DNA of 34,763 nt from Candidatus Magasanikiibacteriota bacterium (GCA_036170335.1 JAVHOZ010000065.1:524-35286), one strand, 5' to 3'. Positions 1 through 19,061 are shown, numbered from the stretch's first letter. Notes: generated from the letters alone by a model not told the origin. Made by a program: numbers and translations.

Positions 1-244
1 GCGTCGACGGCAAGGACGGCAAGAATGGCACCAACGGCACCAACGGGACCGATGGTGTCAACGGCACCAACGGCAAAGACGGTGCAACAGGCGCCAACGG
101 GACCAATGGCAAGGACGGCGCCAACGGTGCGAACGGCACCAACGGCGTCGACGGCAAGGACGGCAAGAATGGCACCAACGGCACCAACGGGACCGATGGC
201 GTCAATGGCACCAACGGCAAAGACGGTGCAACAGGCGCCAACGG
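1..244 (+). repeat. 144-bp tandem duplication (16 Gly triplets, 48 aa) inside the collagen-like region
   Basis: gcgtcgacggcaaggacggcaagaatggcaccaacggcaccaacgggaccgatgg... at 1-100 recurs at 145-244 with only two substitutions seen by eye (ggtgtcaac versus ggcgtcaat). Confidence 0.85.
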
Positions 245-839
245 CGCCAACGGTAAGGACGCGCAGCCCTGCTCTGTCAGCCTCTCGGCGGACGGTTGCA
301 AGGTCAGCATCATCTGCCCGCTTTCGTCCGTCATCTACGCCGTGCCCTGTGGCAGCGCCGATGCTGGCAGTTCCGACACGAGTTCGGCAGATGCTGGAAG
401 CACCGATGCTGCCAGCGCCGACGTCGCCGCCGACATCACCGCTACCGACATCGCAGCCGACACCACAGTGGTGGCGGCGTTCAAGGCTGATCTCAGCTTC
501 ATTTCGCCAGTCGCGGCAGAAATCCACGTGTACTACAACGTGGACCAAGCCGATCCGGCCAAGAGCTCTGAGTCCAGTGGCCTCGCGCCGCTGGCTATCA
601 GTCTGAACATTGTCCAGGCTTGTCTGGGCTTTGACGGTGTCGACATTGCTGTCCGCACTCCGACCGCCCCAATGGTCTGGTGGTGTGGAATCGGCGACGG
701 AACGCCGAGCAAGTCGCAGATTGCGGTGAAGGTCAACGGAGTGTTGGTGGCCCCAACGTTCCAGATCGAACCACAAGCCTGCAGCGGAGGACAGGAGGGC
801 AACCTTCACCTCAGCAAGGCCCAACTCGGCTGTCCGTAA
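3..839 (+). CDS. Collagen-like (Gly-X-Y) repeat protein, C-terminal part; the 5' end lies outside the window
   Basis: Frame 3 is open from the window edge to TAA at 837-839. Positions 3 to about 257 translate as uninterrupted X-Y-Gly triplets (VDGKDGKNGTNGTNGTDGVNGTNGKDGATGANG...). An Asp/Ser/Ala-rich linker follows (SADAGSSDTSSADAGSTDAASADVAADITATD), then a non-repetitive Cys/Trp-containing C-terminal domain. Track ORF 342-839 is only the part after the first in-frame Met. Confidence 0.8.
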   Translation, partial: VDGKDGKNGTNGTNGTDGVNGTNGKDGATGANGTNGKDGANGANGTNGVDGKDGKNGTNGTNGTDGVNGTNGKDGATGANGANGKDAQPCSVSLSADGCKVSIICPLSSVIYAVPCGSADAGSSDTSSADAGSTDAASADVAADITATDIAADTTVVAAFKADLSFISPVAAEIHVYYNVDQADPAKSSESSGLAPLAISLNIVQACLGFDGVDIAVRTPTAPMVWWCGIGDGTPSKSQIAVKVNGVLVAPTFQIEPQACSGGQEGNLHLSKAQLGCP

Positions 840-894
840 AGAAGTATTCCGCTTCACCCGGTTTTCACACCAACCGGTCTAACAAAAAAGTGAA

Positions 895-1130
895 GGTTTT
901 TCGCACCTTGTGTAAAAGCGAACGTTAGAGTGCGTTGATGGAACGCGCCCTACGATAGGCCATTTCGGCCAGCCATGTTCGTCGGCGAGAGATCGCTAGC
1001 GGATCGGTTCACCGGGGCACGCAAGTGCCCCACCATCTTGAATTCATAATCCCGATTGTGAGTTGAAGATGGAAATATAACTATCTCCATGACAAAAAAT
1101 ATCACCCTTCTCTCGGGTGATTTTTTGTTT
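895..1130 (+). repeat. 3' module copy A: shared left arm (about 895-958), 110-nt GC-rich insert (959-1068), shared right arm with hairpin and terminator (1069-1130)
   Basis: 911-958 (tgtaaaagcgaacgttagagtgcgttgatggaacgcgccctacgatag) matches 1930-1977. 1069-1130 (atggaaatataactatctccatgacaaaaaatatcacccttctctcgggtgattttttgtt) matches 1978-2037. The segment 959-1068 is absent from copy B and contains the hairpin ggggcac-gcaa-gtgcccc at 1014-1031. Confidence 0.85.
1101..1128 (+). terminator. Intrinsic terminator after the collagen-like gene
   Basis: Stem atcaccc (1101-1107) pairs with gggtgat (1115-1121). A T-run follows and an A-run precedes. Confidence 0.75.
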
Positions 1131-2053: not shown

Positions 2054-2082
2054 TTGGTTTGTGGGGTAAAAAGGTGTATAAT
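2054..2082 (+). promoter_or_regulatory. Putative promoter for the AbiEi/AbiEii pair
   Basis: TTGGTT (2054-2059), 17-nt spacer, TATAAT (2077-2082). Confidence 0.45.
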
Positions 2083-2125
2083 ATGAAGGTATACGTTTCT
2101 GTTTTTTATTATTTTTAATAATAAA

Positions 2126-2752: not shown

Positions 2753-2754
2753 TT

Positions 2755-5003: not shown

Positions 5004-5006
5004 TAT

Positions 5007-6071
5007 ATGCAACATATTGTACAGGTGATACCGGCATTGGGATACGGGGGAGCCGAACGGTTGGTGGTGGATCTTGTTAATCATAGTGATAGCGCGAAAT
5101 ATCGATTTACGGTAATTGTTTTTTTTGATAATTTGCCGCTGAAGTCGTTGATTGAAAAAAAGGCCAATGTTATTTTGATAGAAAAAAAATCCAAATTTGA
5201 TTTTAGTTTTTTAAATAGATTGGAGAAAAAATTAGTGGAGTTGAAACCGGATCTTGTGCATGGACATCTTTTTGCCGGAGATTTTTGGGGACGACTCGCG
5301 GCCCATCGGTTGAGTGTGCCATATTTGAGTACTGAACACAATCTGAATTACGACGACGGTTGGTTGAAAAATTTTGTGAAAAAAATGGTGTCCAGTGAGC
5401 AAGATTATTTTGTGGCTTGTTCTTTGACGGTGTCGGATTATATGCGTACGGTTTATAATATTAAAAATGAAATCAGAGTAATATCCAACGGTATTGAATT
5501 GAATCGTTTTACCAATTTAACACCAATCACTTGGCACAACCCGCTGCGGTTTTTGATGATTGGCCGGTTGACAAAACAAAAAGGTCAGTTGGTAGCTTTG
5601 TCGGCCTTGAAGAAAATTACCAATCATCATTGGCATTTGACAATAGTAGGGTCGGGGATTGAGAAAAATAATTTGCTGGATTTTGTTAGAAAAAATAATT
5701 TACAAGATAGGGTGGAATTTGTGGAACCTTTGGTTCGGGTGGAAAAATATTTTGGTGAAGCGGATGTTTTTTTGATGCCCTCTGTTTGGGAGGGTTTGGG
5801 TGTGGTAGTGATGGAAGCAATGGCTAGTGAGCGAGTGGTGTTGGTGTCCAAAACCGGTGGACTGACGGAGCTGATTCAAGATCAAGAAACCGGTTATTTT
5901 TCAAAACCACAAAATATTTTGGATTGGGAGAAAAAAATAAAATATATTATTGAAAATAAAAACGAAGCACATCGATTGGCCAAAAATGCCAAAATTTATG
6001 CCAAAGAAAATTTTGGTGTTAAAAAAATGATCGAAAAATATGATAAGGTTTATTCTATAATTATACAATGA
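5007..6071 (+). CDS. Glycosyltransferase, GT4 (GT-B fold) family
   Basis: N-terminal GYGGAERLV motif and C-terminal E-x7-E region (PSVWEGLGVVVMEAMASERVVLVSKTGGLTELI). Confidence 0.85.
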   Translation: MQHIVQVIPALGYGGAERLVVDLVNHSDSAKYRFTVIVFFDNLPLKSLIEKKANVILIEKKSKFDFSFLNRLEKKLVELKPDLVHGHLFAGDFWGRLAAHRLSVPYLSTEHNLNYDDGWLKNFVKKMVSSEQDYFVACSLTVSDYMRTVYNIKNEIRVISNGIELNRFTNLTPITWHNPLRFLMIGRLTKQKGQLVALSALKKITNHHWHLTIVGSGIEKNNLLDFVRKNNLQDRVEFVEPLVRVEKYFGEADVFLMPSVWEGLGVVVMEAMASERVVLVSKTGGLTELIQDQETGYFSKPQNILDWEKKIKYIIENKNEAHRLAKNAKIYAKENFGVKKMIEKYDKVYSIIIQ

Positions 6072-6094
6072 TTCCCGTTTTCGCGGGAATGACA
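6070..6094. repeat. Single unit of the GTCATTCCCG...CGGGAATC palindromic repeat family
   Basis: gattcccgttttcgcgggaatgaca, with a 7-bp stem attcccg/cgggaat. It overlaps the last base and stop codon (6070-6071) of the GT4 gene and fills most of the spacer before the radical SAM gene. Confidence 0.85.
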
Positions 6095-6110
6095 ATTATT
6101 GCAAAAAAAT

Positions 6111-7103
6111 ATGAATACAAAAATGCCAATAGACTGTGTCTTGGCACTGACTTACGACTGCAATGCGCGTTGTACGATGTGTGATATTTGGAAAATAAAA
6201 GATTCTCCGGCCTTGTCTTTGACGGATTTGGCCAAATTACCCGATAGTCTTTTGGATGTGAATTTATCCGGTGGGGAACCATTTTTGAGGAAAGATTTAC
6301 CGGAAATTGTGGCGGTGATAAAAAAGGCTTGTCCAAAAGCGCGCTTGGTAATTTCTTCCAACGGATTTTTGACGCTGGTAATAAAAAAAGCGATGACGGA
6401 AATTTTGAAAATCGCACCCGACATTGGAGTGGCTTTTTCGATTGATGGTATCGGACAGATGCACAATGAGATGCGTGGCATACCGGGTGGTTTTGACAGG
6501 GTGATGGATTCGCTCAAACTGCTCAAAAGTATGGGCATGACCAATCTGCGTTTGGCTTTCACGATTACCGAATACAATGTGAATCATTTTGCCAAAGTTT
6601 ATGATTTGGCGCAGGAGCTGGGTGTGCAATTTACTCATAGTTTTGCTCAAAGCAGTGAATTTTATTTTGGTGGTAAAAAAAATATAAACAACCCGCGTAA
6701 AGATTTGCTGGAAGTGGCATACAAATATATTATCAATAGTGAACTGAAAAGTTGGAATGTGAAACGCTGGCTACGTGCTTATTTTGCCAATGGTATGTTT
6801 CGATTTATTACCAGTAAAAATCCGGTGTTGGACAATGCTCCGGGACGTGATTTTTTCTTCATCGATCCTAGTGGCGATATTTATCCATCGGTGATGCACA
6901 ATGTGATACTCGGAAATATTTCTCAAGTTGATGATTTTGCAAAATTTTGGCAAAGTGCAGAGGTGGAGGAAAAACGCAAAAAAGTAGATGAGTTGAAAAT
7001 GCCGGTTTGGATGATCTGCACTGCGCGTACAGCCATAAAAAGTCATCCGCTCGCAGTCGGTTGGTGGATTTTGAAAAATAAAATATTTGGATATAAATCG
7101 TAA
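6111..7103 (+). CDS. Radical SAM enzyme
   Basis: CX3CX2C cluster motif in LALTYDCNARCTMCDIWK and a downstream GGEPFL SAM-binding motif. The track start at 6099 is TTG; the first ATG is at 6111. Confidence 0.8.
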   Translation: MNTKMPIDCVLALTYDCNARCTMCDIWKIKDSPALSLTDLAKLPDSLLDVNLSGGEPFLRKDLPEIVAVIKKACPKARLVISSNGFLTLVIKKAMTEILKIAPDIGVAFSIDGIGQMHNEMRGIPGGFDRVMDSLKLLKSMGMTNLRLAFTITEYNVNHFAKVYDLAQELGVQFTHSFAQSSEFYFGGKKNINNPRKDLLEVAYKYIINSELKSWNVKRWLRAYFANGMFRFITSKNPVLDNAPGRDFFFIDPSGDIYPSVMHNVILGNISQVDDFAKFWQSAEVEEKRKKVDELKMPVWMICTARTAIKSHPLAVGWWILKNKIFGYKS

Positions 7104-7104
7104 C

Positions 7105-7166
7105 TGTCATTCCCGTGTAAACGGGAATCCAGAATTAATTAGATTCCCGTTTACACGGGAGTGACA
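7105..7166. repeat. Inverted pair of GTCATTCCCG...CGGGAATC units
   Basis: tgtcattcccgtgtaaacgggaatc (7105-7129), 12-nt spacer, gattcccgtttacacgggagtgaca (7142-7166). It fills the gap between the radical SAM stop and the GT4 start. Confidence 0.85.
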
Positions 7167-7172
7167 AAAAAT

Positions 7173-8372
7173 ATGAAAATAGTGTTAGTAAATAAATTTT
7201 GGTATGCGCGCGGTGGAGCGGAGAAAATCGCGTTATTAACCAAAGAGTTGCTGGAAAAAGCCGGACATCAGGTGAAGATTTTTGGTATGAATCATCCGGA
7301 CAATTTGTTTTCCAATAAATATTTTACGGATTTTGTAGATTATAAAAATTTGGGATTGTTGGCGAAAATAAAATTTGGCGCGCGTGTGATTTATAATGCT
7401 CAAGCCAAAAAGAATTTTGAGAAGTTACTGTCGGATTTTGCTCCGGACGTTGTGCATTTTCATAATATTTATCATCAGCTATCTTGTTCGGTGATTGAAG
7501 CGGTGGCGGAGAAAAAAATAAAATCAGTGATGACTTTGCACGATTACAAATTTATTAGTCCCAATTATAATTTGTATCATCATGGGAAAATTTCTGAGTG
7601 TGGGGTAAATGGAAAATATTATCAGTGTCTTTTGTCCGATTGCATGGAAAATTTTTCCGATAGTCTATTGGCGACGTTGGAGGCGTATTTTGTAGCTTGG
7701 AAAGGTTACAAAAACATGATAAATAAATTTATTAGCCCTAGTAATTTTTTACGTGATAAATTTGTTAAAGCGGGATTTATTGCCAAAAATATTTTGTATT
7801 TGCCAAATGCGATTGAGAATAATAATTTTAAAATGAATTCCGGCGATCTTGATTATGTCGCTTATGTCGGCCGGTTGTCTAGTGAAAAAGGATTAAAATA
7901 TTTATTGGGAGCAGCGGGGAAATTATCTAGTATTAGATTTGTAATAGTGGGCGACGGACCACAACGAGCTGAGTTGGAAAAAATAAAAAATGCCAATCAA
8001 CTAGATAACGTTGAATTTGTCGGACAAAAAAGCGGCGTAGAATTGCAGAGTTTGATTGCTGGTGCTCGTTTGTTGGTGTTACCATCGGTCTGGTATGAAA
8101 ATGCTCCGTTGAGTATTTTGGAAGCGAAAGCGCATGGCAAGATTGTAGTGGCTAGTGATATTGGTGGAATATCGGAAATTTTGCCAAAAGAATTGTTGGT
8201 AAAACCGGCCGATGCGATTATTTTAGCGCAAAAAATCGATGAATGGTTTAATAAAAACGAAACCGAACGTCAATCGATGAGTGAAAGATTGTTTGGCCAA
8301 GCTAGCGCTGAAAATAGACCGGAAATATATTTGCAAAGATTGTTAAAAATTTATTCAGATTTATCCAGTTAA
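7173..8372 (+). CDS. Glycosyltransferase, GT4 family
   Basis: MKIVLVNKFWYARGGAEK N-terminus and C-terminal PSVWYENAPLSILEAKAHGKIVVASDIGGISEI (E-x7-E). The track start at 7161 is GTG inside the repeat; the ATG is at 7173. Confidence 0.85.
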   Translation: MKIVLVNKFWYARGGAEKIALLTKELLEKAGHQVKIFGMNHPDNLFSNKYFTDFVDYKNLGLLAKIKFGARVIYNAQAKKNFEKLLSDFAPDVVHFHNIYHQLSCSVIEAVAEKKIKSVMTLHDYKFISPNYNLYHHGKISECGVNGKYYQCLLSDCMENFSDSLLATLEAYFVAWKGYKNMINKFISPSNFLRDKFVKAGFIAKNILYLPNAIENNNFKMNSGDLDYVAYVGRLSSEKGLKYLLGAAGKLSSIRFVIVGDGPQRAELEKIKNANQLDNVEFVGQKSGVELQSLIAGARLLVLPSVWYENAPLSILEAKAHGKIVVASDIGGISEILPKELLVKPADAIILAQKIDEWFNKNETERQSMSERLFGQASAENRPEIYLQRLLKIYSDLSS

Positions 8373-10351
8373 TGAAAAATTTTTTTTACAGATCAATCAC
8401 CGCAATTTTTATTGGCCTATTTGTGTCGGTATTTTGTTATTTTAGTTATTTTGCCAAGTCGGCGCCGATTTTGGCCAATTATTATCTGCGTTGGGATTTG
8501 CCGTCAAGTGAAATTGAAAATTTGGCCAAATGGGATTTGTTAATTTTGGATATGGAAAATCAGGTAACCAATCCGGAAAAAATAAAAAAAATTCGTCAGT
8601 TGCATCCCGGGATAAAAATATTGGCCTATGTGACTTCGCAAGAAATAAAAAATGGACAGCTGGGCACGATGCGCGCCAAATTAAAAAGTGGTATTAGTGA
8701 CAGTTGGTATTTACGTCGCAGTAATGGTGAAAAAATTTCTTTTTGGCCTGGCACAACGATGCTCAATCCGACAGATGTGTGTCCGATAAGTAATGGCCAA
8801 CGCTGGAATGATTATCTGGCCAGTTTTATGAACAACGAAGTTCTTTCTACTGGTTTGTGGGATGGGATTTTTTATGATAATGCTTGGGGTGATCTGACTT
8901 GGTTTTCCGGCAACAATGTGGATCTGAATTTGGATGGTCAACCGGATAGCGATATCAACAAACATTGGAATGCCGGTATGACAAATTTATTCAACATGAC
9001 GCGTGATTTATCGGGTGCGAATTATGTGATTGTCGGCAATGCGATGACACGTGAGTATGCCAATAATCTCAACGGTATGATGTATGAAAATTTTCAAAAC
9101 CATGTGTGGCGCGATGTAATGTATGCGATAAAAACAGAGATGAATGGCAATTTGCGGCCGCGAATTATTATCATCAATGGCAATACCAATAATACCGGCA
9201 ACAAACAGAGTTACCAAAATATGCGCTATGGTTTGGGGAGCGCACTAGTTGGTGGGGCGTATTTTTCTTATGATGATGGTGATCAAAGTCATAGCCAAAC
9301 TTGGTGGTACGATGAGTATAATGTGAAGCTGGGAAATCCGGTGGGTGAAGCTAGTACTATGGATGGTAATACTTTGATTACTGAAGATGTCTGGCGTCGT
9401 GATTATGAAAACGGTTTGGCCTTGGTAAATTCTACTGGCAATGAGCAGACAGTAAATTTGGGCAATGATTATGAAAAAATTATCGGAAAGCAAGATCCGG
9501 CGATAAATGATGGATCGATAGTCGACAGAGTAAAAATAAATTCGCGCGATGGTTTGGTGTTGCGCAAAGTAGTACAAAATCTTTTTGGTGCGTCTTTTAA
9601 AAATGGTAGCTTGGTGAGATTTTATGATGTGCGTGGCCAGAGAGTGCGTAATGGTTTTTTTGCTTTTGTACCGGATGTGGCTGGTGGTGCGCGTGTGTTT
9701 GTGGGTGATTTGAATGGTGATGGTAGTAATGAGCGAGTAGTCGGTGGGGCTGGGCGTTTTGAAATTTTTAATTCGGCCAATTTGCATTGGTTTGATAGTT
9801 ATCCCTTTGGTGGAAATAATTCCAAAGAATTGCGTTTTAGTGTAGGCAAAAGTTTGGCTGGTGAAGTGAAAATTTTGCTAACACCGACGGTTGGCAATCG
9901 GGCGGTTTTGTATGATTATCATGGTGAAGTTATCAAAGAAGATTTTTTGCCATTTGGTTCAAAATATAATGCTGGTTTTTATGGGGCGCTGGGAAATTTT
10001 AGTGGTGGCTCGAATCTGGAAGTGGCGATTGGTTCGGGTGGGGTGAGAGTGGGGGAGGTGTTGGTATTTGATGCGGATTTACAAAAAATAAAATATCGGT
10101 TTTTTCCATTTGATAAAAAATATTTTGGTAGAATAAAAGTAGCAGCCGGAGATGTCGATGGCGATGGCAAGGCGGAGATAATCACGATGGGAAAATTTGG
10201 AGCAAAAAATGTGGTGCGAATTTTTGACAATAAAGGTAAAAAATTGTCGGAGTTTTTGGTTAATAGTCAGTTTGGTGGGGCAGATTTGGGTATTGGTGCT
10301 ACTGATGTGAATTTTGATGGGAAGGATGAAATAGTGATGGATGGGGGATAG
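8372..10351 (+). CDS. Membrane-anchored or secreted protein with C-terminal FG-GAP/VCBS-like repeats; the N-terminal half may be a glycoside-hydrolase-like TIM-barrel domain
   Basis: N-terminal hydrophobic segment (ITAIFIGLFVSVFCYFSYFA). Repeated Ca-binding-like motifs GDLNGDGSNERVVG, GDVDGDGKAEIIT and TDVNFDGKDEIVM. The N-terminal domain call is weak and rests on recollection of GHL-type families only. ATG overlaps the upstream stop (TAATG). Confidence 0.6.
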   Translation: MKNFFYRSITAIFIGLFVSVFCYFSYFAKSAPILANYYLRWDLPSSEIENLAKWDLLILDMENQVTNPEKIKKIRQLHPGIKILAYVTSQEIKNGQLGTMRAKLKSGISDSWYLRRSNGEKISFWPGTTMLNPTDVCPISNGQRWNDYLASFMNNEVLSTGLWDGIFYDNAWGDLTWFSGNNVDLNLDGQPDSDINKHWNAGMTNLFNMTRDLSGANYVIVGNAMTREYANNLNGMMYENFQNHVWRDVMYAIKTEMNGNLRPRIIIINGNTNNTGNKQSYQNMRYGLGSALVGGAYFSYDDGDQSHSQTWWYDEYNVKLGNPVGEASTMDGNTLITEDVWRRDYENGLALVNSTGNEQTVNLGNDYEKIIGKQDPAINDGSIVDRVKINSRDGLVLRKVVQNLFGASFKNGSLVRFYDVRGQRVRNGFFAFVPDVAGGARVFVGDLNGDGSNERVVGGAGRFEIFNSANLHWFDSYPFGGNNSKELRFSVGKSLAGEVKILLTPTVGNRAVLYDYHGEVIKEDFLPFGSKYNAGFYGALGNFSGGSNLEVAIGSGGVRVGEVLVFDADLQKIKYRFFPFDKKYFGRIKVAAGDVDGDGKAEIITMGKFGAKNVVRIFDNKGKKLSEFLVNSQFGGADLGIGATDVNFDGKDEIVMDGG

Positions 10352-10411
10352 ACCTATTACCTTGAATTTTTATAGTCATTTTTTTGGCTAAAATTAGCCC
10401 ATGCTAGACCA

Positions 10412-10440
10412 TTGACAAATGGTCGTTTTTGTGCTATGCT
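10412..10440 (+). promoter_or_regulatory. Putative promoter with extended -10, upstream of GC-rich gene 2
   Basis: TTGACA (10412-10417), 17-nt spacer ending in TGC, TATGCT (10435-10440). This implies a leader of about 300 nt before the ATG at 10750. Confidence 0.5.
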
Positions 10441-10503
10441 ATGTAGTTATTCTGTGCAAGAATAATGACTGAATTTAGCTTTTTTCAAATCAAACGAATA
10501 CTT

Positions 10504-10612
10504 ACCTGCGTGGAAGTAAACACATGTCATTCCTAATATTGTCATTCCAGTGAAGCTTGTCCTCACGAAAGTGGTGAACGGGAATCTAAGATGTTTTTAC
10601 TCCCATGCAGGT
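10504..10612. mobile_element. MITE-like 109-bp element: 22-bp terminal inverted repeats enclosing degenerate GTCATTCC...GGGAATC units
   Basis: acctgcgtggaagtaaacacat (10504-10525) versus the reverse complement of 10591-10612 (acctgcatgggagtaaaaacat): 19 of 22 matches. The interior carries gtcattcc twice and cgggaatc once. Confidence 0.6.
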
Positions 10613-10749
10613 TCTAGCATTGGGAGGTGGTTGCCTAGTTGGTAACAGTCCTTCCCAGTGTTGGGTAAAATTCGTCAGTGTTAGCGCAACTTTTTCGTCT
10701 TGTCAGAGGTAACCAACCCATCTGCACAGGACATGCTCTGGAGGATACC

Positions 10750-11325
10750 ATGACGGAGAATACCTACACCGGTCCGAACATCGATTCGGAGAAGAAGTTT
10801 TTTGGCGCCGGCGCTCCGATGAGTGGCGGACTGTTCGTCGCGATTGGCTTGGCGGTGGTGGCGGTGGTTTTGGCCATCGTCGGCATCAACATGGCCAACA
10901 ACGCCGACACCCACGCCACTTCGATCGAGAAGTCGGTCAGCAAGCTGGGCGATGCGCATGACGCGCTCGCCAAGTACGTCCATGAGGAGCACGACTGGGT
11001 CGTCGCTCGGCTCGCGACGAAAGCCACGGCGACGACGGTCGACGAAGCGATCGCGACTCTGACGGCGAAGGCCGACAAGAGCGTGGTCGACAAGTTGACC
11101 GAGGAGTTGAAGACGAAAGCGTCTAGCTCCACCGTCACGAGGCTGGCCAGCGATCTCCTGATGAAGGCTGACGCGCAAGCGGTCAAGCGGATCGCGCGGC
11201 GAGTTCAAAAGATGGACACGCGTGTCAACAATCTGGTTGACTTGAACAAGTTGATCGAGGTTGCTCCCGCTGCTCCGCCCGCAGCCAAGCCGCCGCTTCC
11301 GGCCGCGGCACCGGCTGCCAAGTAG
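10750..11325 (+). CDS. GC-rich membrane-anchored repeat protein (N-terminal TM segment, about 16-aa K-A-D-type repeats, Pro/Ala-rich C-terminal tail)
   Basis: GGAGG at 10740-10744, 5 nt before the ATG at 10750 (the track ORF starts upstream at 10678). TM segment GGLFVAIGLAVVAVVLAIVGI. Repeats LATKATATTVDEAIAT / LTAKADKSVVDKLTEE / LKTKASSSTVTRLASD / LLMKADAQAVKRIARR. Tail APAAPPAAKPPLPAAAPAAK. GC3-rich codons throughout. Confidence 0.75.
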   Translation: MTENTYTGPNIDSEKKFFGAGAPMSGGLFVAIGLAVVAVVLAIVGINMANNADTHATSIEKSVSKLGDAHDALAKYVHEEHDWVVARLATKATATTVDEAIATLTAKADKSVVDKLTEELKTKASSSTVTRLASDLLMKADAQAVKRIARRVQKMDTRVNNLVDLNKLIEVAPAAPPAAKPPLPAAAPAAK

Positions 11326-11460
11326 TCCGTCCCACGCAACGTGGGCATCGTAGTCAGTACACCATGTTTTTTGATGGTGATGACTCGATGAGGACGCAAA
11401 ATCCCCAAAAGGGTGCCTGTGACGCAAGTCACAGGCATACCGCTTAGTAAATAAAATTTG
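11326..11460 (+). other. Conserved structured 3' module (copy 1) between the stop codon and the terminator
   Basis: Hairpins cccacg-caa-cgtggg (11331-11345), caccat-gttttttg-atggtg (11360-11379) and cctgtgac-gcaa-gtcacagg (11416-11435). Invariant 25-mer aggacgcaaaatccccaaaagggtg (11391-11415). Conserved trailer acc-gcttagtaaataa. Homologous to 12420-12552. Confidence 0.7.
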
Positions 11461-11480
11461 TTTATTGAGCCGATTAAAAA

Positions 11481-11508
11481 ATCACCAAATCAATCTGGTG
11501 ATTTTTTA
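11481..11508 (+). terminator. Intrinsic terminator after GC-rich gene 2
   Basis: Stem atcacca (11481-11487) pairs with tggtgat (11496-11502), followed by a T-run and preceded by an A-run. Confidence 0.75.
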
Positions 11509-11520
11509 TTTTTTTTAAAT

Positions 11521-11545
11521 TGTCATTCCCGTGCAAACGGGAATC
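11521..11545. repeat. Single GTCATTCCCG...CGGGAATC unit
   Basis: tgtcattcccgtgcaaacgggaatc in the AT-rich spacer between the two GC-rich genes. Confidence 0.85.
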
Positions 11546-11663
11546 TTATTTTTGACAAAACACATCAATTGTGGTTTTATAGTATCCAGTGCGAATAGTG
11601 GCTAGTTTGGAATTTCCAATCGGCCAGGCTCAATTGGTCAAGTTTTTGGAGGAAAAGAGGAAC

Positions 11664-12419
11664 ATGGATACTCAACCTTTTGTTATTGGTGCTACGGCGC
11701 CTAAACCCCCGGTGTCTGATCCTGACGAAAGTCGTCATGGTCAAGTTCTCGATCTTCAAGAGATGCGTCGGCGTCTGGCGGAAAAGAAGAATCCGACTGT
11801 CAAGGATGCACTTGAAGCGTTGAGTGTTGAACGCGCTCAAACGGACCAGCTGACCATTCGGGTTGCCGATCTGGAGAACGACAAGCTCAAGGACAACAAG
11901 CACTTCGGTGCCAATGTGTCCGAGGTCGCCAAGCCGCTCATCGCTACGGCTGTTCAGACTTCATACCGGAAGATCTGGAGTGTCGCGGTTGTGGCTGGCT
12001 TGGTTCTGCTGGCTGTGGTCACGGTCGGCGTCTGGTCGCATCAGGCACTCAAGTCTCGGGTTTCACTGGTGGAGTACGGTTTGACCGCTAAGGCCGATCA
12101 GGCTCAGGTGGACAAGATCGTGTCTCAACTCACGACCAAGGCGGACAAGTCCGAGCTCAAGGCTATTGAAGCCAAGGCAGACCGCTCGGTTGTCGAACGT
12201 CTCAGCCAAGAGCTCAAGGAGAAGGACGGCGCGCACGACGCACGTCTCAACGATCTGGCCACGGATCTGATGTCCAAGGCCAATCAAGAGGAGGTTGAAA
12301 AGCTCTCCGCTCGTCTGCGCTCAACTCGCTCCAAAATTCGCTCGCTCGAACAGCGGATGAAGGAGTTCTCGACTTCGGTTCCAGCGCCGGCTCCAGCCGT
12401 TCCGCCCAAGACCATGTAG
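11664..12419 (+). CDS. GC-rich membrane-anchored repeat protein, paralog of 10750-11325 with a longer N-terminal cytoplasmic-type region
   Basis: ATG at 11664 is preceded by ggaggaaaagagg (the track start at 11589 is GTG). Central TM segment IWSVAVVAGLVLLAVVTVGVW. Repeats LTAKADQAQVDKIVSQ / LTTKADKSELKAIEA / KADRSVVERLSQE / LMSKANQEEVEKLSAR. Pro/Ala tail VPAPAPAVPPKTM. Confidence 0.75.
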   Translation: MDTQPFVIGATAPKPPVSDPDESRHGQVLDLQEMRRRLAEKKNPTVKDALEALSVERAQTDQLTIRVADLENDKLKDNKHFGANVSEVAKPLIATAVQTSYRKIWSVAVVAGLVLLAVVTVGVWSHQALKSRVSLVEYGLTAKADQAQVDKIVSQLTTKADKSELKAIEAKADRSVVERLSQELKEKDGAHDARLNDLATDLMSKANQEEVEKLSARLRSTRSKIRSLEQRMKEFSTSVPAPAPAVPPKTM

Positions 12420-12552
12420 TCCACCCATGCAATGTGGGCAATGAGATCTGTTTGCTTTGTTTTTGAAAGCGAACTACTCTAGAAGGACGCAAAATCCCCA
12501 AAAGGGTGTCCCGACTTAGTCGGGACTACCTGCTTAGTAAATAATTTTTTTG
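12420..12552 (+). other. Conserved structured 3' module (copy 2)
   Basis: Hairpins cccatg-caa-tgtggg (12424-12438), gtttgcttt-gtttttg-aaagcgaac (12450-12474) and tcccgac-tta-gtcggga (12509-12525). The identical 25-mer lies at 12484-12508. Trailer acc-tgcttagtaaataa. Confidence 0.7.
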
Positions 12553-12572
12553 TTTATTTAGTATATTAAAAA

Positions 12573-12598
12573 ATCCACCGTTGTTTGGTGGATTTTTT
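12573..12598. terminator. Bidirectional intrinsic terminator between convergent genes
   Basis: Stem atccacc (12573-12579) pairs with ggtggat (12587-12593). An A-run lies upstream and a T-run downstream. It sits between the plus-strand gene ending at 12419 and the minus-strand gene ending at 12611. Confidence 0.7.
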
Positions 12599-12610
12599 AA
12601 TTGATACAAA

Positions 12611-13537
12611 TTATTTACCGGTGATTAAACATACCACTGATCCATCAAATTTCCAATTTTGTTTTATGGCTTGTTGTAATCCAACAATTGCGAGCGCGCT
12701 ATTTGGTGATAATTTTATTTTTTCAGTTTCTTCTACTAGTTTGATTGTATTTTTTATTTGTTGGTCGTCGGCTATCCAACCAAAACCGTGACTGTTTGTT
12801 ATATCGGCGGTTACCATTTCTTTGCGGTGAGCAATGTTATCCACGATTGCGCCGGCCAGTGATGTCTTTGTCATTCCCGCAAAAGCGGGAATCTTGGTTG
12901 TGTCGACAGATTCCCGCTTTTGCGGGAATGACAATAAAAATTTTTCTGTAATCGGATGCACTGCGCTAGTTTGTACAATATGAATTTGAGGATTTAGTTT
13001 TAATTTTTTAAAAGCAGCGTGAAGTCCTTGGGCGGTAGTACCACTGGATGTTGGGATAAAAATTGCCGATAGATTTTTTATTTTATTCAATTCCAGAGCA
13101 AGTTGTTCGTATCCGGTTAGGGCAGTATCATCTATCGACTGGCGTAATATTTTGGCCTTGCCGGATTTGTCGATTTGAAAAGCTGATTGTTTTGGATTTT
13201 TTATTTTTATTAAAAATATATTTTTGGATAATATTTTTGTTAATATTTTTTCTTTGGCTTTGTCAATTTTTTCACCCACAAAAATTTGTAAAGTCAGTTT
13301 GTTTTTGTGTGTCCGATTAAATTTTTTAATATACAAACCAGCGGCCAAAGCGGCATTTCCGGAAGAAGATATTACAAAATTAGCAAGTCCTTGTTTGACA
13401 TAAAAATCTACCATCAGTGGTATAGAACGGCCTTTGTGTGACCCAAGCGGGTGTAAATCTTCTCTTTTGAAGTAAAGAGGCGCTTCCAAACCCAGTGTTT
13501 TAGCCAATTTTTGATGTTTTGTTTGAGGGGTTATCAT
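12611..13537 (-). CDS. PLP-dependent enzyme of the tryptophan-synthase-beta / threonine-synthase-like fold, carrying an in-frame repeat-derived insertion
   Basis: Lys-containing motif EDLHPLGSHKGRS (compare the S-F-K-D-R PLP-lysine motif), a Gly-rich loop FIPTSSGTTAQG and a C-terminal CLITG. The track start at 13549 is TTG; the ATG is at 13537. Residues LSFPQKRESVDTTKIPAFAGMTK are encoded by the repeat pair at 12869-12933. Confidence 0.7.
   Translation of the reverse strand: MITPQTKHQKLAKTLGLEAPLYFKREDLHPLGSHKGRSIPLMVDFYVKQGLANFVISSSGNAALAAGLYIKKFNRTHKNKLTLQIFVGEKIDKAKEKILTKILSKNIFLIKIKNPKQSAFQIDKSGKAKILRQSIDDTALTGYEQLALELNKIKNLSAIFIPTSSGTTAQGLHAAFKKLKLNPQIHIVQTSAVHPITEKFLLSFPQKRESVDTTKIPAFAGMTKTSLAGAIVDNIAHRKEMVTADITNSHGFGWIADDQQIKNTIKLVEETEKIKLSPNSALAIVGLQQAIKQNWKFDGSVVCLITGK
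12869..12933. repeat. Inverted pair of GTCATTCCCG...CGGGAATC units located inside a coding sequence
   Basis: tgtcattcccgcaaaagcgggaatc (12869-12893), 15-nt spacer, gattcccgcttttgcgggaatgaca (12909-12933). The host ORF stays open through it. Confidence 0.85.
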
Positions 13538-13608
13538 AGGTCTTGCCAAAAGTGATTATTTTTGATATACTTGTTTTTGCTTTCGTAATTTAGTTTAATT
13601 ATGCTCTT

Positions 13609-13807: not shown

Positions 13808-14365
13808 TTATTTTCCAAAAATTTGTTTTCTAAATTTATCCAGTTCTTTTTTTCCTTTTAGTTGCATTCTTAAAATATCACATACAAATTGATTGTTCCA
13901 TGATTGTAATGCGGTCGCGTCTTTGATAAATTGTTCAAAACTTTTTTTGTGAATAGTTATTTTTTCTCCGGCGTCTAGGTTTTGTTTCGCGACGACTTGA
14001 CAATCTGATGCGAGATAATAATATACAGTCCAATCCATTTTGTGTATAGGTTGGAATGTTTTTAGTAGTTTCCATTTTTTGGCCACCAGGCCGGATTCTT
14101 CCAGTAGTTCGCGTTTGGCCGCGGCCAATGGTTTTTCGCCTGGGTCGACGCGACCACCAATCAGTCCGTGATCACGTTTTTGGTTTGGTTGAAATTCTTT
14201 GGTGGTAAAAATTTTATTATCTCTCGTGGCGATGATTTGGACAGTATCGGGACGTTTGATCATTTCAAAAGTAGCCAAAGACCCATCGAACATTTTTTGT
14301 GGCCATTGATAGGTGTCAAAAATTTCTCCGGTAAAAATCTTTTTTGCTTGTTTTGGTATTTTCAT
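13808..14365 (-). CDS. NUDIX hydrolase
   Basis: Nudix box GGRVDPGEKPLAAAKRELLEESG (G-x5-E-x7-REUxEExGU). Confidence 0.85.
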   Translation of the reverse strand: MKIPKQAKKIFTGEIFDTYQWPQKMFDGSLATFEMIKRPDTVQIIATRDNKIFTTKEFQPNQKRDHGLIGGRVDPGEKPLAAAKRELLEESGLVAKKWKLLKTFQPIHKMDWTVYYYLASDCQVVAKQNLDAGEKITIHKKSFEQFIKDATALQSWNNQFVCDILRMQLKGKKELDKFRKQIFGK

Positions 14366-14389
14366 AATTTGTTAGGTTCCTGATGAAAA

Positions 14390-15757
14390 TTATATTTTCA
14401 TCAAATTTTCTATCATCCCTCTAAAACTATGGCTACCCATAAAAACAATGGCGTCATTAATCTTAGCGGCATGTTTTAGATAATTTATTAGTTCTTCGTC
14501 AACATCAAAATATTTTACATTAGAATGGGTTTTTGAAATTATATTGGCGAGTTCTTCGCCTTCAATACTACCGGGAGTTTTTACTTTTGTAAGACGGGGG
14601 ATGATGACTTCAGTGGCGTCGGCGAATTGGTGGTCGTAATCTGGAAGTGATTCTACTTGCCGGTTGCCGGTGTTTGGTTCAAAGATGGCAAAAATTTTTC
14701 CGGAATAAATATTTTTTAAAGTTGCCAGTACCGATTTGGCTTTGATAGGTGAGTGAGCAATATCGTCATAGATGTCAGCACCAGAAGTGGTGGTGCCACG
14801 TTTTTCTAAGCGGCGTTTGATACCATCAAATTTTGCTATCGCCGATATTATTTTATCTGGTTCAATTCCAATTTCTTTGGCCATAACAAAAGCGCCACAA
14901 ATATTTTCGGCCATGTAGTCACCGAGCATCGGAGAAGAAATTTCAAAAACTTCGCCGACGTTTTCTATGGTAAAAGTGAGATCGGATTTTGTTTGTACAA
15001 CATCTTCATAAATATAATTACTTTTTTCTTTACCGTAAGTTGCTATTTTAGATTTGGATTTTTGAATTATATTTTTTACGTTGTTGTCATCAGTACAAGC
15101 AACTATCAACCCAGTCGGTGGAACCAGCTGAATTAATTTTTCAAAAGCTTCCAAATAAGATTGTTCGGTCGGATAGACATCGGCATGATCCCAACGTACT
15201 GCTGTAAGTAAAAGATGAGTTGGTTTGTATGAAAAAAATTTGGCACGCATATCGTCGCGACTAGTTTTGTATTCGTCACCTTCAATCACACTCCAATCAC
15301 CACCGAGATCATCAGCGCTGAGTTCAAGACTGTTGGCCAAACCACCAAACATATAAGCCGGATCAAGGCCGGCTTCTTTGAGGATCCAAGCAAGCAGGGC
15401 AGTAGTAGTGGTTTTGCCGTAGGTACCGGCACAGACAATCGAATTTTCTTTTAACAAATACTTCGCAATAAGTTCCGGATAAGAAACATGAGGAATATTA
15501 TTTTTCAATACAAAATTTAATTCCGGGTTGGAACTGCTAGCCACATTGCCGACCACAACTAAATCTGGTATGCCCATTTTTTCAGTGTGCCAACCAGGAT
15601 AATATTCGATATTATGGTTAGTAAGATGAGTGGAAATAGGCGGGTAAAACCCAACATCCGAACCGGTAACGTGCCAGCCTTTTTTTTGCCACAAAATAGC
15701 CAAGGCACTCATCCCGACCCCACAGATTCCGATAAAATGAATATGTTTTTTTGTCAT
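14390..15757 (-). CDS. mpl: Mur ligase, Mpl/MurC type (resembles UDP-N-acetylmuramate:L-alanyl-gamma-D-glutamyl-meso-DAP ligase more than canonical MurC)
   Basis: N-terminus HIHFIGICGVGMSALA...VTGSDVGFYPPIS, P-loop AGTYGKTTTT, and IEGDEYKTSRDDMRAKFFSYKP, which matches the Mpl-type EADEYD.AFFDKRSKF.HY block as I recall it from E. coli Mpl. Assigning the symbol mpl rather than murC is tentative. Confidence 0.6.
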   Translation of the reverse strand: MTKKHIHFIGICGVGMSALAILWQKKGWHVTGSDVGFYPPISTHLTNHNIEYYPGWHTEKMGIPDLVVVGNVASSSNPELNFVLKNNIPHVSYPELIAKYLLKENSIVCAGTYGKTTTTALLAWILKEAGLDPAYMFGGLANSLELSADDLGGDWSVIEGDEYKTSRDDMRAKFFSYKPTHLLLTAVRWDHADVYPTEQSYLEAFEKLIQLVPPTGLIVACTDDNNVKNIIQKSKSKIATYGKEKSNYIYEDVVQTKSDLTFTIENVGEVFEISSPMLGDYMAENICGAFVMAKEIGIEPDKIISAIAKFDGIKRRLEKRGTTTSGADIYDDIAHSPIKAKSVLATLKNIYSGKIFAIFEPNTGNRQVESLPDYDHQFADATEVIIPRLTKVKTPGSIEGEELANIISKTHSNVKYFDVDEELINYLKHAAKINDAIVFMGSHSFRGMIENLMKI

Positions 15758-16407
15758 TTTATTTCCTTTTTCAATTTTTCCAAATCAGTGCTCCATTTTT
15801 TGCCATCGAACCATTCTAGTCCGTCAAATTGTAATTTGTAAGTATCGGTTTTGCGTGTTACCGAACCAAGATAAATATATTTTTTATTATTTTCTTTGGC
15901 ACAAACAATCGCTTTGGTCATCATACCTAGTCCAAGGTTTTTTATTTTGGAATTCAGATCGTAAAATGGATAGCAATAATGTAACAATTTAGAGTTATCA
16001 AAACAGATTACATAACCGATCGCCAAGTTGTCTTCTTTTTGTCTGTAAATAAACAATTTGTTAAAATTACTTTCGTCCGGTTCGGTGATGAGAGTCTTGA
16101 TTTTTTGTGCGGAAAAAGTTTTTTCACCAAATTTGGTAGCATAAAAATCTTTGCCAAGTTTGTGTATGCCCCAGTGATAATTGTCGTACGAAATATTGGC
16201 GACTTCCATGTTCACATTTTCAGTGTGTTTCAAAACCCTTCTATTCTCACTATTGAGCTCAAATTTGGACAAATCAATACGCAAACTTCTGGTTTGATAC
16301 ATTTCACCCTTTCCAATACGAGTAAACAAAAAACCGCCATCATAAAGATCATTTATATTGTTATCAGAAAAGTCAGTTACAGTTTTTGAGTTCCATTTTA
16401 AATACAT
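15754..16407 (-). CDS. Arginyl/leucyl-tRNA--protein transferase-like (ATE/Bpt family, GNAT/Fem-like fold)
   Basis: C-terminal block LGLGMMTKAIVCAKENNKKYIYLGSVTRKTDTYKLQFDGLEWFDGKKW resembles the ATE_C signature (LG...........Y.YLGY.......YK..F.P.E.....W). The stop overlaps the downstream ligase start (ATGA). Confidence 0.55.
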   Translation of the reverse strand: MYLKWNSKTVTDFSDNNINDLYDGGFLFTRIGKGEMYQTRSLRIDLSKFELNSENRRVLKHTENVNMEVANISYDNYHWGIHKLGKDFYATKFGEKTFSAQKIKTLITEPDESNFNKLFIYRQKEDNLAIGYVICFDNSKLLHYCYPFYDLNSKIKNLGLGMMTKAIVCAKENNKKYIYLGSVTRKTDTYKLQFDGLEWFDGKKWSTDLEKLKKEIK

Positions 16408-16410
16408 AAT

Positions 16411-16578
16411 GTTTTTGAAATTAAGTTTTTTTAATTGTGAAACACTCAGGTAATTTGTGACTCATTTCACTCTGGCTCTGAACTCGCCTGCGGGCTCAAA
16501 CAGCAGAGCCAGCCACGTTCAATTCGTCTACAAATTAAACTTCGCTTTTTCAATATTAAAAAAACCTAATTTCAAACG
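16411..16578. repeat. About 168-bp long imperfect palindrome filling the mraY / Bpt-like intergenic space (MITE-like or structured RNA)
   Basis: Outer arm 16411-16442 (gtttttgaaattaagtttttttaattgtgaaa) matches the reverse complement of 16548-16577, about 28 of 32 with one indel. Inner 9-bp stem ctggctctg (16472-16480) pairs with cagagccag (16504-16512). A shared taatttgt block lies between. Confidence 0.65.
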
Positions 16579-16583
16579 ATTCC

Positions 16584-17699
16584 TTATTTATATATCGCCA
16601 TCCAAATCCCCACCACCACCATCAAAGCATGAATAATCCAAAATCTCATTACAATTTTTTCTTCACTCCAGCCATTAAACTCCAGATGATGATGTAGTGG
16701 GGCCATTTTGAACAAACGACGTCCAAATAAACGGCGAGAAGCTACTTGTAAAATTACAGCAATAGTTTCAACGTAAAAAATAAATCCAAAAATAGGAATA
16801 TATAAAGTTTTATCAATTGAGATCATATTGATAGCCAGTAGCGCGCCCAGTCCCAGAGAACCAACATCACCCATTTGAAATCGCGCTGGTTTGATATTAA
16901 AGTAAGTATAAGCGAGTAGTGAGCCAGCAACCGTAGCATTAAGTGGAGCAAAAGCTGTACGTCCCTCTATCCAACTAATAACCGTTAATCCAACAAAAGT
17001 AATAAGCAACGACCCTCCTGCTAAACCATCTAATCCGTCAGCGATATTTACCGCGTTGGCCGTAAACATTACAAATAAAATAATAATTGGCACAATCCAA
17101 ACGCCGGCATAAATTCGGTCATCAAATGGAATAGCGAGTGAGTGCCAATGTGGGTCAAGTTTGGTGTAAACCCACCAAGCGGCTACTGCTCCGGCTAAAA
17201 ATTGAAAAATTAATTTTTCATGAACTTGAATTCCGCGACCGGGGTGTGATCCAAGCATATGAGTGAGATGTTTAAAAAATTCCCACGGTAGTATCAGAAT
17301 ATACCAAACACGCATATACCAATTGCGATGGATTTTTATCAAAATAATAGTTTGTTTTAAAGTGCGTAAACGGCGTTTAGCGCCAAAGGTGTTGAGTAAA
17401 TCATCAGCCGCGCCCAGCAGTGCAGCGATAGTCATCACACCGATTGGTACATAAGTATATTTACGACTCCAATTAAAAATCAGTGTGATGGCTGTTACCA
17501 TCAAAATTACCAAAAGACCACCCATAATCGGGGTGCCAACTTTGACTTGACGGTCGCCGTATAAGGTAAAATCATAATCATTACGGCGAGTAATTTTTAA
17601 TTTGTATAATATTTTTATTAAAATTGGCGCAAATACAAAAGACGACAGGCAAGCGCCAATAAAAAACAGCAAAGATGTTTGTAATAGGGTGGTTTGCAT
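16584..17699 (-). CDS. mraY: Phospho-N-acetylmuramoyl-pentapeptide transferase
   Basis: Motifs GAADDLLN, NAVNIADGLDGLAGG and APLHHHLE; about 10 TM segments. Confidence 0.9.
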   Translation of the reverse strand: MQTTLLQTSLLFFIGACLSSFVFAPILIKILYKLKITRRNDYDFTLYGDRQVKVGTPIMGGLLVILMVTAITLIFNWSRKYTYVPIGVMTIAALLGAADDLLNTFGAKRRLRTLKQTIILIKIHRNWYMRVWYILILPWEFFKHLTHMLGSHPGRGIQVHEKLIFQFLAGAVAAWWVYTKLDPHWHSLAIPFDDRIYAGVWIVPIIILFVMFTANAVNIADGLDGLAGGSLLITFVGLTVISWIEGRTAFAPLNATVAGSLLAYTYFNIKPARFQMGDVGSLGLGALLAINMISIDKTLYIPIFGFIFYVETIAVILQVASRRLFGRRLFKMAPLHHHLEFNGWSEEKIVMRFWIIHALMVVVGIWMAIYK

Positions 17700-17744
17700 G
17701 GATAAATCTTACTCCAAGTTAGCCAAAAAATCAAGCCGACCTGC

Positions 17745-19037: not shown

Positions 19038-19061
19038 AAATTTTAATTAAATAAGATTATA

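Follow-up and report, generated by a model that had tools for sequence, protein, structure and literature searches.

The vls antigenic-variation locus of Borrelia is GC-rich within an AT-rich genome, and comprises an expression site and arrays of silent cassettes which convert it. The subject of this report is a pair of adjacent genes, g1 and g2, which lie at 10613–12552 of a 34,763-nucleotide stretch of DNA from a Candidatus Magasanikiibacteriota bacterium (GCA_036170335.1 JAVHOZ010000065.1:524-35286; this whole stretch is referred to as the window). Both genes keep a vertically inherited GC-rich composition, and each is followed by a conserved structured RNA element. Like vls, they form what is predicted to be a surface-protein locus, with a GC content far above the genome average which is stably kept. 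Unlike vls, the locus contains only one expressed gene or two, silent copies and repeats at the level of the coding sequence (CDS) are absent, and the spacer is kept AT-rich.

Terminal stabilisers of mRNA, or 'positive retroregulators', are exemplified by the 3' stem-loop of Bacillus thuringiensis cry; stabilising untranslated regions (UTRs) are also found on S-layer mRNAs. The two genes resemble these in having a structured GC-rich UTR beside an intrinsic terminator, a monocistronic mRNA and products that are presumed to be abundant envelope or secreted proteins. They differ in the element, which is much larger (ca. 148 nt, five helices), begins at the stop codon, contains a single-stranded core that is almost invariant and accompanies a CDS which is recoded throughout; the stabilisation would in this case be putative. 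The small RNAs (sRNAs) of the RsaE/RoxS type, which have C-rich seeds or derive from 3' UTRs, share with the element an unpaired UCCC(C) between stable hairpins, a terminator thereafter, and duplicated copies with the same seed, but the element has no sequence or structure match in Rfam and a scan of the window for targets was at chance. The sharp departure in GC content and codon usage at the scale of a single gene is also that of horizontally acquired compositional islands, from which g1 and g2 differ in sharing one slot in all relatives, co-diverging with their neighbours and keeping their composition over saturating divergence.

Each component of the locus is of a known kind, be it the coiled-coil envelope protein, the structured UTR or the compositional island. 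The combination is unusual, above all the long vertical upkeep of a composition which resembles that of transferred DNA and is bounded by the ends of transcripts. A full-text literature search found nothing on this locus or phenomenon.

Composition and inheritance of g1 and g2

The initial annotation, made from the sequence alone, had described two GC-rich islands in an AT-rich genome, with composition switching within a few tens of nucleotides on both sides of each gene and a backbone-like spacer between them. Its hand counts of G+C (37/60 at 10921–10980 and 17/60 at 3001–3060) were exact when recounted by program, and the GC content in 50-nt windows agrees with the remainder: it rises from 0.28–0.42 to 0.52–0.72 near 10600, is 0.26–0.34 at 11451–11600, climbs again from about 11600 and is 0.24 at 12551. 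The GC-rich stretches are bounded by promoter and terminator, and the 150-nt spacer between the genes is AT-rich. A total of 29 open reading frames (ORFs) were scored in the window, 26 belonging to the backbone and three being outliers, namely g1, g2 and the 3' end of a collagen-like gene. The GC content is 0.62 in g1 and 0.56 in g2, and that of third codon positions (GC3) 0.81 and 0.63, respectively; all 26 backbone ORFs have a GC3 of 0.22–0.46, none reaching either gene, and the islands are indeed exceptional.

The amino acid composition (Ala 12–19%) accounts for only part of the excess, since recoding these proteins with backbone codon frequencies gives a GC3 of only 0.36–0.38 and a total GC of 0.45–0.47. 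Comparison with the backbone genes revealed that synonymous choice is inverted in the islands. Lysine is specified by AAA in 91% of cases in the backbone and by AAG in 88–91% in the three islands; glutamate by GAA in 84% of cases in the backbone and by GAG in 89% in g1 and 56% in g2. In g1 the inversion extends to Asp, Asn and Ile. The shift in g2 is milder (GAG 56%, ATC 43%, T at third positions 0.27). No TTA, ATA, GTA or CTA codon occurs in any of the three islands, and A at third positions has a frequency of 0.05–0.10 there versus 0.30 in the backbone. Long antisense ORFs also occur at the islands (e.g. 10681–11427 on the minus strand), as is usual for GC-rich DNA; purifying selection is seen in the sense frames (ratio of nonsynonymous to synonymous substitution, dN/dS, 0.14–0.47).

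Such codon usage might itself be a regulatory device, the genes, made up of codons which are rare in this genome (AAG, GAG, NNC/NNG), being translated through different tRNAs or tRNA modifications, or spared when those fail, in a codon-partitioned regulon with a logic comparable to bldA/TTA control in Streptomyces. The almost complete inversion for Lys, that of the other four amino acids in g1 and the lack of the four codons named above are what such a device would show, and the same signature is present in the unrelated third gene, the collagen-like one, and has been kept over long divergence. We regard this explanation as very unlikely, since it leaves the conserved 3' element, the 5' leader and the excess folding of the CDS (see below) unexplained and g2 is much less extreme; the window itself contains no tRNA genes.

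The host belongs to the Candidate Phyla Radiation (CPR)/Patescibacteria, and contigs with the same locus are titled Candidatus Magasanikbacteria; the backbone consists of ordinary housekeeping genes of a reduced-genome bacterium, as had been supposed. For g1 there were three hits, and only two relatives, among 5.8e9 proteins. For g2 there were 15 in the same set and 16 among 1.84e9 cluster representatives (exhaustive HMMER). In the Pfam library searched, no domain was found for any of the homologues, nor does any bear an informative name; those on a long enough contig all occupy one slot, in the order GHL15/FG-GAP gene, one or two family genes, PALP gene (on the opposite strand), LysW, NUDIX and Mur ligase. 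This arrangement was seen in more than 10 independent Magasanikbacteria-type assemblies, among them the related loci L001, L004, L005, L008, L012, L013, L015 and L017, and extends to homologues with identities as low as 38% (P0008) and 28% (P0013). Assemblies from ENA, JGI, NCBI and Logan samples agree, which rules out a chimera at the composition boundaries. A check of related genomes for presence or absence, which the initial annotation had proposed, found the slot occupied in every locus retrieved and not patchily so.

The two genes are paralogous, as had been claimed, their products being 27% identical (E 2e-11). One family gene is present in L012 and L015, and L017 has the reverse order, with a g2-type gene first and a g1-like gene second. 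The occurrence of both types across the clade, the low identity and the variation in copy number and order indicate that the tandem duplication is old. The earlier suggestion of duplication in place therefore stands as regards tandem paralogues and falls as regards a recent event. The family has been passed on vertically, although with some turnover.

Divergence at synonymous sites (dS) between the window and L001 is 1.07 for g1 and 0.58 for g2, as compared to 0.66 and 0.67 for the neighbouring FG-GAP and PALP genes. Against L005, where the comparison is near saturation, the proportion of synonymous differences (pS) is 0.57 and 0.73 versus 0.68 and 0.70. The proteins are less conserved than their neighbours, with amino acid identities of 48–66% (g1) and 53–79% (g2) versus 73–90%, and dN/dS of 0.25–0.47 and 0.14–0.32, respectively, versus 0.06–0.17. 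In every lineage, including the homologues at 28–38% identity, the GC3 of the family genes is 0.61–0.89 and that of the backbone 0.25–0.44. Since GC3 is high despite large synonymous turnover, in which the relic of a recent transfer would have decayed, the composition must be maintained; of the two alternatives originally offered, foreign or compositionally protected, it is the second which these data uphold.

The first, i.e. the recent arrival of the cassettes from a high-GC host or a phage of that host, with a composition that has yet to drift to that of the backbone, could draw on a codon usage like that of an organism with 60–65% GC, on the sharp boundaries, and on a weak repeat-level likeness of g1 to the virion structural protein family phrog_2824 (E 1.6e-6). 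The genes are, however, syntenic in every related genome examined, all of their homologues lying in AT-rich relatives, and have a dS similar to that of the flanking AT-rich genes, near saturation in the deepest comparison, with GC3 undiminished. High-GC or viral relatives did not come to light: no homologue from outside the clade was retrieved among the 5.8e9 proteins or the 1.84e9 representatives; viral contigs gave no match by 3' module pattern or by protein profile, and the promoters and terminators are of backbone type. Recent transfer is largely refuted by these results, and we consider it exceedingly improbable. The locus is a counter-example to the equation of atypical GC with recent horizontal transfer, being a gene-sized anomaly which is vertically inherited and maintained.

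Several classes of mobile or diversifying DNA were also considered. Our Pfam scan covered 20 backbone ORFs, and six further ones at 13808–20792 were judged from their apparent counterparts in the syntenic L001. Atypical base composition and codon usage are those of a genomic island, but the slot is always occupied and dS is close to that of the flanking genes; the window has no tRNA gene, no donor homologue was found outside the clade or in viral contigs, and apart from the two 3' modules there are no direct repeats. None of the 20 ORFs has an integrase or transposase domain, and the L001 counterparts of the other six have ordinary Pfam assignments. Integron attC cassettes were rejected because g1 and g2 are each equipped with a promoter-like site and a terminator, the spacer is AT-rich, no integrase occurs in the scanned ORFs and the 3' fold lies on the coding-sense strand (112 G·U versus 5 A·C cells). 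A target of a diversity-generating retroelement was discarded as no repeat resembling a template/variable pair lies in or near the genes and none of the 20 ORFs has a reverse transcriptase domain.

The RNA element behind the stop codons

The initial annotation had noted the same structured module after both genes. At the DNA level this appears as direct repeats of 72% identity (11331–11415 and 12424–12508), the sole ones within 10300–12700. A covariance model built from four co-linear copies found 20 copies in 13 loci, each directly behind a family gene, and in the window detected the two expected copies only (Table 1). A pattern search for the core of the element gave three matches in 596 Gb of species-representative genomes, six in a metagenome collection and none in viral contigs, all of them at this locus.

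The first helix begins at the UAG stop codon. This helix (P0) is formed by GUCC, of which the first base is the G of the stop, and by GGAC some 65 nt further on; it encloses a hairpin (P1) and a second, long hairpin (P2), which has two tiers and a U-rich loop. These are followed by the single strand AAAAUCCCCAAAAGGGU, of which the core AAAUCCCCA(AAA)GGGU varies in only one of the 20 copies, that of L007, which is without the three A residues. The next hairpin, P4, is variable in sequence, and P5 is AU-rich and conserved (CUUAGUAAAUAA...UUGUUUAUUGAG); the terminator comes next. An intrinsic terminator is present behind every full-length copy.

Among the 20 copies, 93.6% of the cells are standard pairs and 32 of the 52 pairs have changed on both sides; this alignment was fitted by the covariance model, which favours its own structure. 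When the partners were slid by 1–3 columns, 33–46% were paired and 9–17 pairs had changed, and no column shuffle attained the observed values. P0 itself covaries, being GCCCC/GGGGC in L012 and UCUGU/ACAGA in L005. In a 17-copy alignment there were 112 G·U but only 5 A·C cells, with pairing of 94% on the sense strand versus 81% on the antisense strand, which places the structure on the mRNA strand and not in a DNA cruciform or an antisense RNA. The 3' element is, by its compensatory changes on one strand, a conserved structured RNA. UAG is the stop codon of 17 of 18 family genes but of only 4 of 26 backbone genes, a preference which fits constraint from P0, the G of the stop being its first base.

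No match at the gathering score of any Rfam 15 family was obtained in the whole window, and at E values up to 10 there were only sub-threshold matches dominated by terminators. The element is new, an undescribed and well-supported RNA motif in a phylum with almost no known regulatory RNAs. A hammerhead or other known ribozyme was rejected, there being no conserved catalytic core and no Rfam hit. Programmed readthrough of UAG (PYLIS/SECIS-like) was likewise rejected: the covariation is at the RNA level, indels are not multiples of three (e.g. UAGAGUCC in L001 versus UAGUCC), and the peptides that readthrough would add to g1 and g2 are unrelated, with no conserved extension. One g2-type element lies on a 4.9-kb contig titled 'uncultured Gammaproteobacteria' (L006, CAYZHG010000001.1), followed by DNA of about 36% GC; this is probably a mis-binned CPR contig.

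The near-invariance of the core raises the question of whether the element chiefly gives rise to a trans-acting sRNA derived from the 3' UTR, the GC-rich CDS being a separate issue. If the A-rich linker were cleaved, UCCCC...GGGU would be set free together with P4, P5 and the terminator, and the C-rich strand would pair with G-rich or Shine-Dalgarno-like sites in other mRNAs. The core lies between stable hairpins ahead of a terminator with a U-tract, is the same in both copies of each genome, and is stricter than any stretch of the proteins, which between these genomes are about 30% identical; C-rich seeds are, moreover, a feature of the sRNAs RsaE/RoxS of Staphylococcus/Bacillus. On the other hand, an internal promoter is not evident, the sole promoter-like match (11428–11457) being one that would start transcription a few nucleotides from the terminator. 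Sites complementary to the core occur in the 35-kb window at the rate of chance (15 versus 14.3 expected), Rfam has no match to RsaE or another sRNA, and P0 ties the element to the stop codon, which points to a role in cis. An sRNA as the main function is, in our estimation, unlikely. The alternatives weighed here are not all mutually exclusive, and release of an sRNA could go together with RNA-level selection on the CDS.

Parts of the element have also been exchanged between the paralogues. That behind g2 in L004 (6407–6552, minus strand) has a 5' half almost identical to the g1 type and scores 139.7 bits on the g1-based model versus 68.9 for g2 of the window, and, across genomes, the P4 junction variants CAUACCG and CUACCUG do not sort with g1 or g2 copies; both observations indicate exchange (gene conversion) between the tandem 3' UTRs. 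The GC enrichment could then be a DNA-level by-product of frequent recombination, or GC-biased conversion, at a fast-evolving surface-protein locus, on the pattern of recombining antigen loci like vls. In line with this, g1 and g2 evolve faster than their neighbours (identity 48–79% versus 73–90%, dN/dS 0.14–0.47 versus 0.06–0.17), the proximal promoter and leader have been replaced in the lineage of the window and L001, and copy number and order vary. Conversion tracts would not be expected to respect the ends of transcripts, yet these are the boundaries of the islands, and the spacer stays at 26–34% GC. With CDSs that are 27% identical and no DNA repeats beyond the 3' module, there is no CDS donor within the locus; the dS of g2 is not raised relative to the neighbours, and the folding excess is larger on the sense strand. 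This makes conversion quite unlikely as the source of the GC content.

Proposed selection on the transcript

The folding of the coding regions was compared with that of dinucleotide shuffles (z-scores averaged over 570 nt, 16 shuffles per sequence and 16–100 overall, few genes). Five g1 orthologues had a mean z of -4.2 on the sense strand, all being at or below -3.0; for six g2 orthologues the means were -2.3 on the sense and -0.5 on the antisense strand, and eight backbone CDS segments gave -0.4 on the sense strand. Excess folding of the CDS on the sense strand is thus suggested for g1 and g2, although not decisively.

The reading which we favour, with a probability of roughly 0.45, is that selection acts on the mRNA itself, this being a structured and probably long-lived transcript with a cis-acting 3' element, the GC content of which is vertically inherited and maintained. 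High GC is a property of the transcribed region, handed down vertically and actively kept; the mRNA would be heavily base-paired, poor in A and U, and probably either long-lived or handled in a special way. In cis, the 3' element would stabilise the transcript or block its processing, and a protein or another RNA may recognise its near-invariant single-stranded core. Should the GC recoding indeed serve mRNA stability or selective translation, this would be a gene-specific post-transcriptional control which can be recognized from sequence.

A number of points weigh against this proposal. The antisense strand of g1 is structured as well (mean z = -3.0), and the contrasts in z come from the small numbers of shuffles and genes given above. 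That the mRNA is stable, and the element cis-acting, is something we infer, and why these particular proteins should need such an mRNA is left without explanation. Among synonymous singletons, GC-to-AT changes outnumber the reverse by 15:0 in g1 and 19:8 in g2 by a crude parsimony count on few sites, so that the composition could be in slow decay rather than at equilibrium; the same count gave the opposite excess in the backbone genes, which suggests a parsimony artefact at high divergence. Furthermore, the 5' leaders of the window are unlike the leader conserved elsewhere, and a conserved design from 5' to 3' end is not shown for the window.

An extension of the proposal, which we hold to be rather doubtful, is that the clade keeps a small set of 'recoded' genes whose high-GC, structured transcripts, tagged by the 3' element with its core AAAAUCCCCAAAAGGGU, form a separate post-transcriptional class of mRNA specifying envelope or host-contact proteins. 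Such mRNAs might, for example, persist for an extremely long time, withstand RNases or toxins, or be localised or translated in a specific way, and their atypical composition would then be a signal of function and not of ancestry.

Transcription units, proteins and neighbouring genes

g1 and g2 are each a transcription unit of their own, with an AT-rich promoter, leader, GC-recoded CDS, 3' element and intrinsic terminator (Table 1).

Table 1. Positions of the features of the locus and of the third GC-rich unit, counted from the first nucleotide of the window
Feature	Position	Strand	Description
Third GC-rich unit	3..1126	+	Collagen-like (G-x-y repeat) gene, 3' end 3–839, GC3 0.75; structured 3' UTR; terminator ca. 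1094–1126
Distal g1 promoter, sigma-70-like	10412..10440	+	TTGACA, 17-nt spacer, TATGCT, TG before -10; 10/12 matches
Short leader segment	10443..10489	+	AGUUAUU...AAUAAU hairpin, second small hairpin, T-run
Palindromic units in g1 leader (MITE/REP-like)	10526..10587	+	GTCATTCC(C/A)G...CGGGAATC; one unit here in L001
Proximal g1 leader, GC-richer	10600..10749	+	Hairpins CTCCCATGC...GCATTGGGAG and GGTTGCC...GGTAAC; Shine-Dalgarno GGAGGA 10740–10745
g1 CDS	10750..11325	+	191-aa bitopic protein: short N-terminus, predicted transmembrane segment ca. 27–50, four 16-aa K-A-D repeats, Pro/Ala tail
3' element, copy 1	11323..11470	+	Covariance model 179.9 bits
g1 intrinsic terminator	11475..11518	+	13-bp stem (11475–11508), then T-run
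Spacer palindromic unit	11521..11546	+	One GTCATTCCCG...CGGGAAT; absent at this position in L001, L004, L005
g2 promoter-like site	11552..11583	+	TTGACA 11552–11557, TG-n-TTTTAT 11572–11580 (17-nt spacer), overlapping TATAGT 11578–11583
g2 leader	11584..11663	+	Shine-Dalgarno GGAGGA 11648–11653
g2 CDS	11664..12419	+	251-aa bitopic protein: ca. 105-aa cytoplasmic N-domain, predicted transmembrane segment ca. 106–126, K-A-D repeats, Pro-rich tail ending PKTM
3' element, copy 2	12417..12562	+	Covariance model 68.9 bits, E 1e-18
g2 intrinsic terminator	12568..12600	+	AAAAAATCCACC...GGTGGATTTTTT; convergent with the PALP gene, which ends at 12611

The TTGACA stretch upstream of g1 is kept in L001, L003, L005, L012 and L013, as are the position and form of the segment of ca. 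45 nt that follows; it contains a T-run and two hairpins and may be an attenuator or a tiny transcript. The strong distal promoter and this segment also occur at the equivalent positions of L015 and L017. Further downstream the loci differ, and at the position of the palindromic units of the window others have a different proximal promoter and leader. In L003, L005, L012, L013 and L008 the proximal promoter lies inside an inverted repeat, ATGACT...AGTCAT, which looks like an operator or an RNA stem; it was seen as GCGATGACTGTGGGTT...AGTCATCGTGC at about 180–235 of L003, with equivalents in L005, L012, L013, L015 and L017. The leader that comes next is some 100 nt long and comprises two hairpins and a closing stem (UCGUGC/GCACGA); nine of its pairs have changed on both sides, among only five sequences. 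In the window and L001 the proximal promoter and leader are replaced by the palindromic repeat insertion and a different, GC-rich leader; this type is present in two sequences only, between which there is a compensatory change (GGTTGCC/GGTAAC versus GGTCACC/GGTGAC).

The terminator, single repeat unit and TTGACA which had been described in the spacer were found at 11475–11508, 11522 and 11552. The g2 promoter was read from the sequence, the scan having passed over it since the second position of its -10 hexamer is a T; its equivalent, TTGACA...TTTTATAAT, is kept in L001, L004 and L005.

The features said to be common to the two proteins were found again in both translations: each has one hydrophobic segment, four to five 16-residue units of the form L-x-x-K-A-D/S-x-x-x-V-x-x-L, and a tail rich in Pro and Ala. 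Conserved features of the g2 type are the N-domain (DLxEVRRRLxEKKxPTxKD...HFGANVxEV), the transmembrane segment, KADxSVVERL, NDLATDLMSKA and the C-terminal PKTM. An AlphaFold2 model of g2 from a 13-sequence alignment is all-helical, with helices at 46–158 (through the membrane segment) and 163–236; its mean predicted local distance difference test (pLDDT) is 68.5 and its predicted template modelling score (pTM) 0.21. The N-terminus would lie inside and, beyond the single membrane segment, a long helical K-A-D repeat domain and the Pro-rich tail outside. The fibrous, outward-facing proteins originally envisaged are thus predicted to be bitopic, all-helical and elongated membrane proteins, which would presumably be abundant components of the envelope.

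Searches of both proteins against Pfam, PHROGs, NCBIfam, PADLOC and, by sequence profile, the PDB gave only sub-threshold matches of the coiled-coil type, with none to PDB sequences. Besides that of g1 to phrog_2824, they include a weak match to the LmuB coiled-coil and, in the g2 family, weak matches to TraP (NF033885) in 12 of 13 members (best 9e-5) and to IcmG/DotF (NF038218) in 5 of 13, the best score being 17.4 bits against a curated cut-off of 135. IcmG/DotF of type IVB secretion and IncI1 TraP share with g2 a cytoplasmic N-terminus, one transmembrane segment and a helical extracytoplasmic region. Membership of g2 in these families was rejected since it scores far under the cut-off and has no other secretion-system genes nearby, its neighbours specifying glycosyltransferases, GHL15/FG-GAP protein, PALP enzyme and Mur ligases; the likeness is probably architectural or compositional. 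We read the weak database matches in general as reflecting architecture and composition rather than family membership. The g1/g2 family is one without existing annotation, known from Magasanikbacteria-type CPR bacteria only. Its members are bitopic coiled-coil envelope proteins, specified at a fixed position beside genes for polysaccharide and the cell wall; as the bacteria are ultra-small and probably depend on a host, they are reasonable candidates for roles in surface architecture or host contact.

Upstream, the backbone includes genes for a Wzy_C-like protein, GT4 glycosyltransferases, radical-SAM enzymes and the GHL15/FG-GAP protein. Downstream, on the opposite strand, lie the gene for the PALP enzyme (12611–13549) and the ORFs at 13808–20792, the L001 counterparts of which have precomputed Pfam assignments to NUDIX, Mur ligase, MraY-type (Glycos_transf_4) and FtsI-type transpeptidase. 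Farther on are GpsA, a P-type ATPase, transketolase, a hibernation factor and MurB. The slot of g1 and g2 is fixed between genes for cell-envelope polysaccharide and the division/cell-wall (dcw) cluster. A plus-strand skew of G over C (0.2–0.54 per 300 nt) runs across the glycosyltransferase and GHL15/FG-GAP genes at 3600–10500, ends abruptly where the g1 island begins, and is near zero over the remaining window.

The third GC-rich island spans 1–1090 of the window. The 3' UTR of its collagen-like gene is 250 nt long, GC-rich and highly structured (z = -7.1), so that the unit is of a design like that of g1 and g2; its sequence is unrelated and the covariance model R1 has no match there. A search with the Cys-containing C-terminal domain of the collagen-like protein retrieved no homologue, either from the protein database or from viral contigs. 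Directly after this gene, at 1209–3537, come two toxin-antitoxin or abortive-infection pairs, the first composed of a HEPN protein and a minimal nucleotidyltransferase (1209–1903) and the second of AbiEi and AbiEii (2126–3537).

The 10-mer of the palindromic repeat is present in seven copies in the window versus 1.5 expected. The PALP gene carries, at 12870–12932, an in-frame inverted pair of this repeat (GTCATTCCCG...CGGGAATGAC), which adds about 14–18 residues (…SFPQKRESVDTTKIPAFAGMT…) and is absent from the L001, L004 and L005 orthologues; in its in-frame insertion it resembles the Rickettsia palindromic elements.

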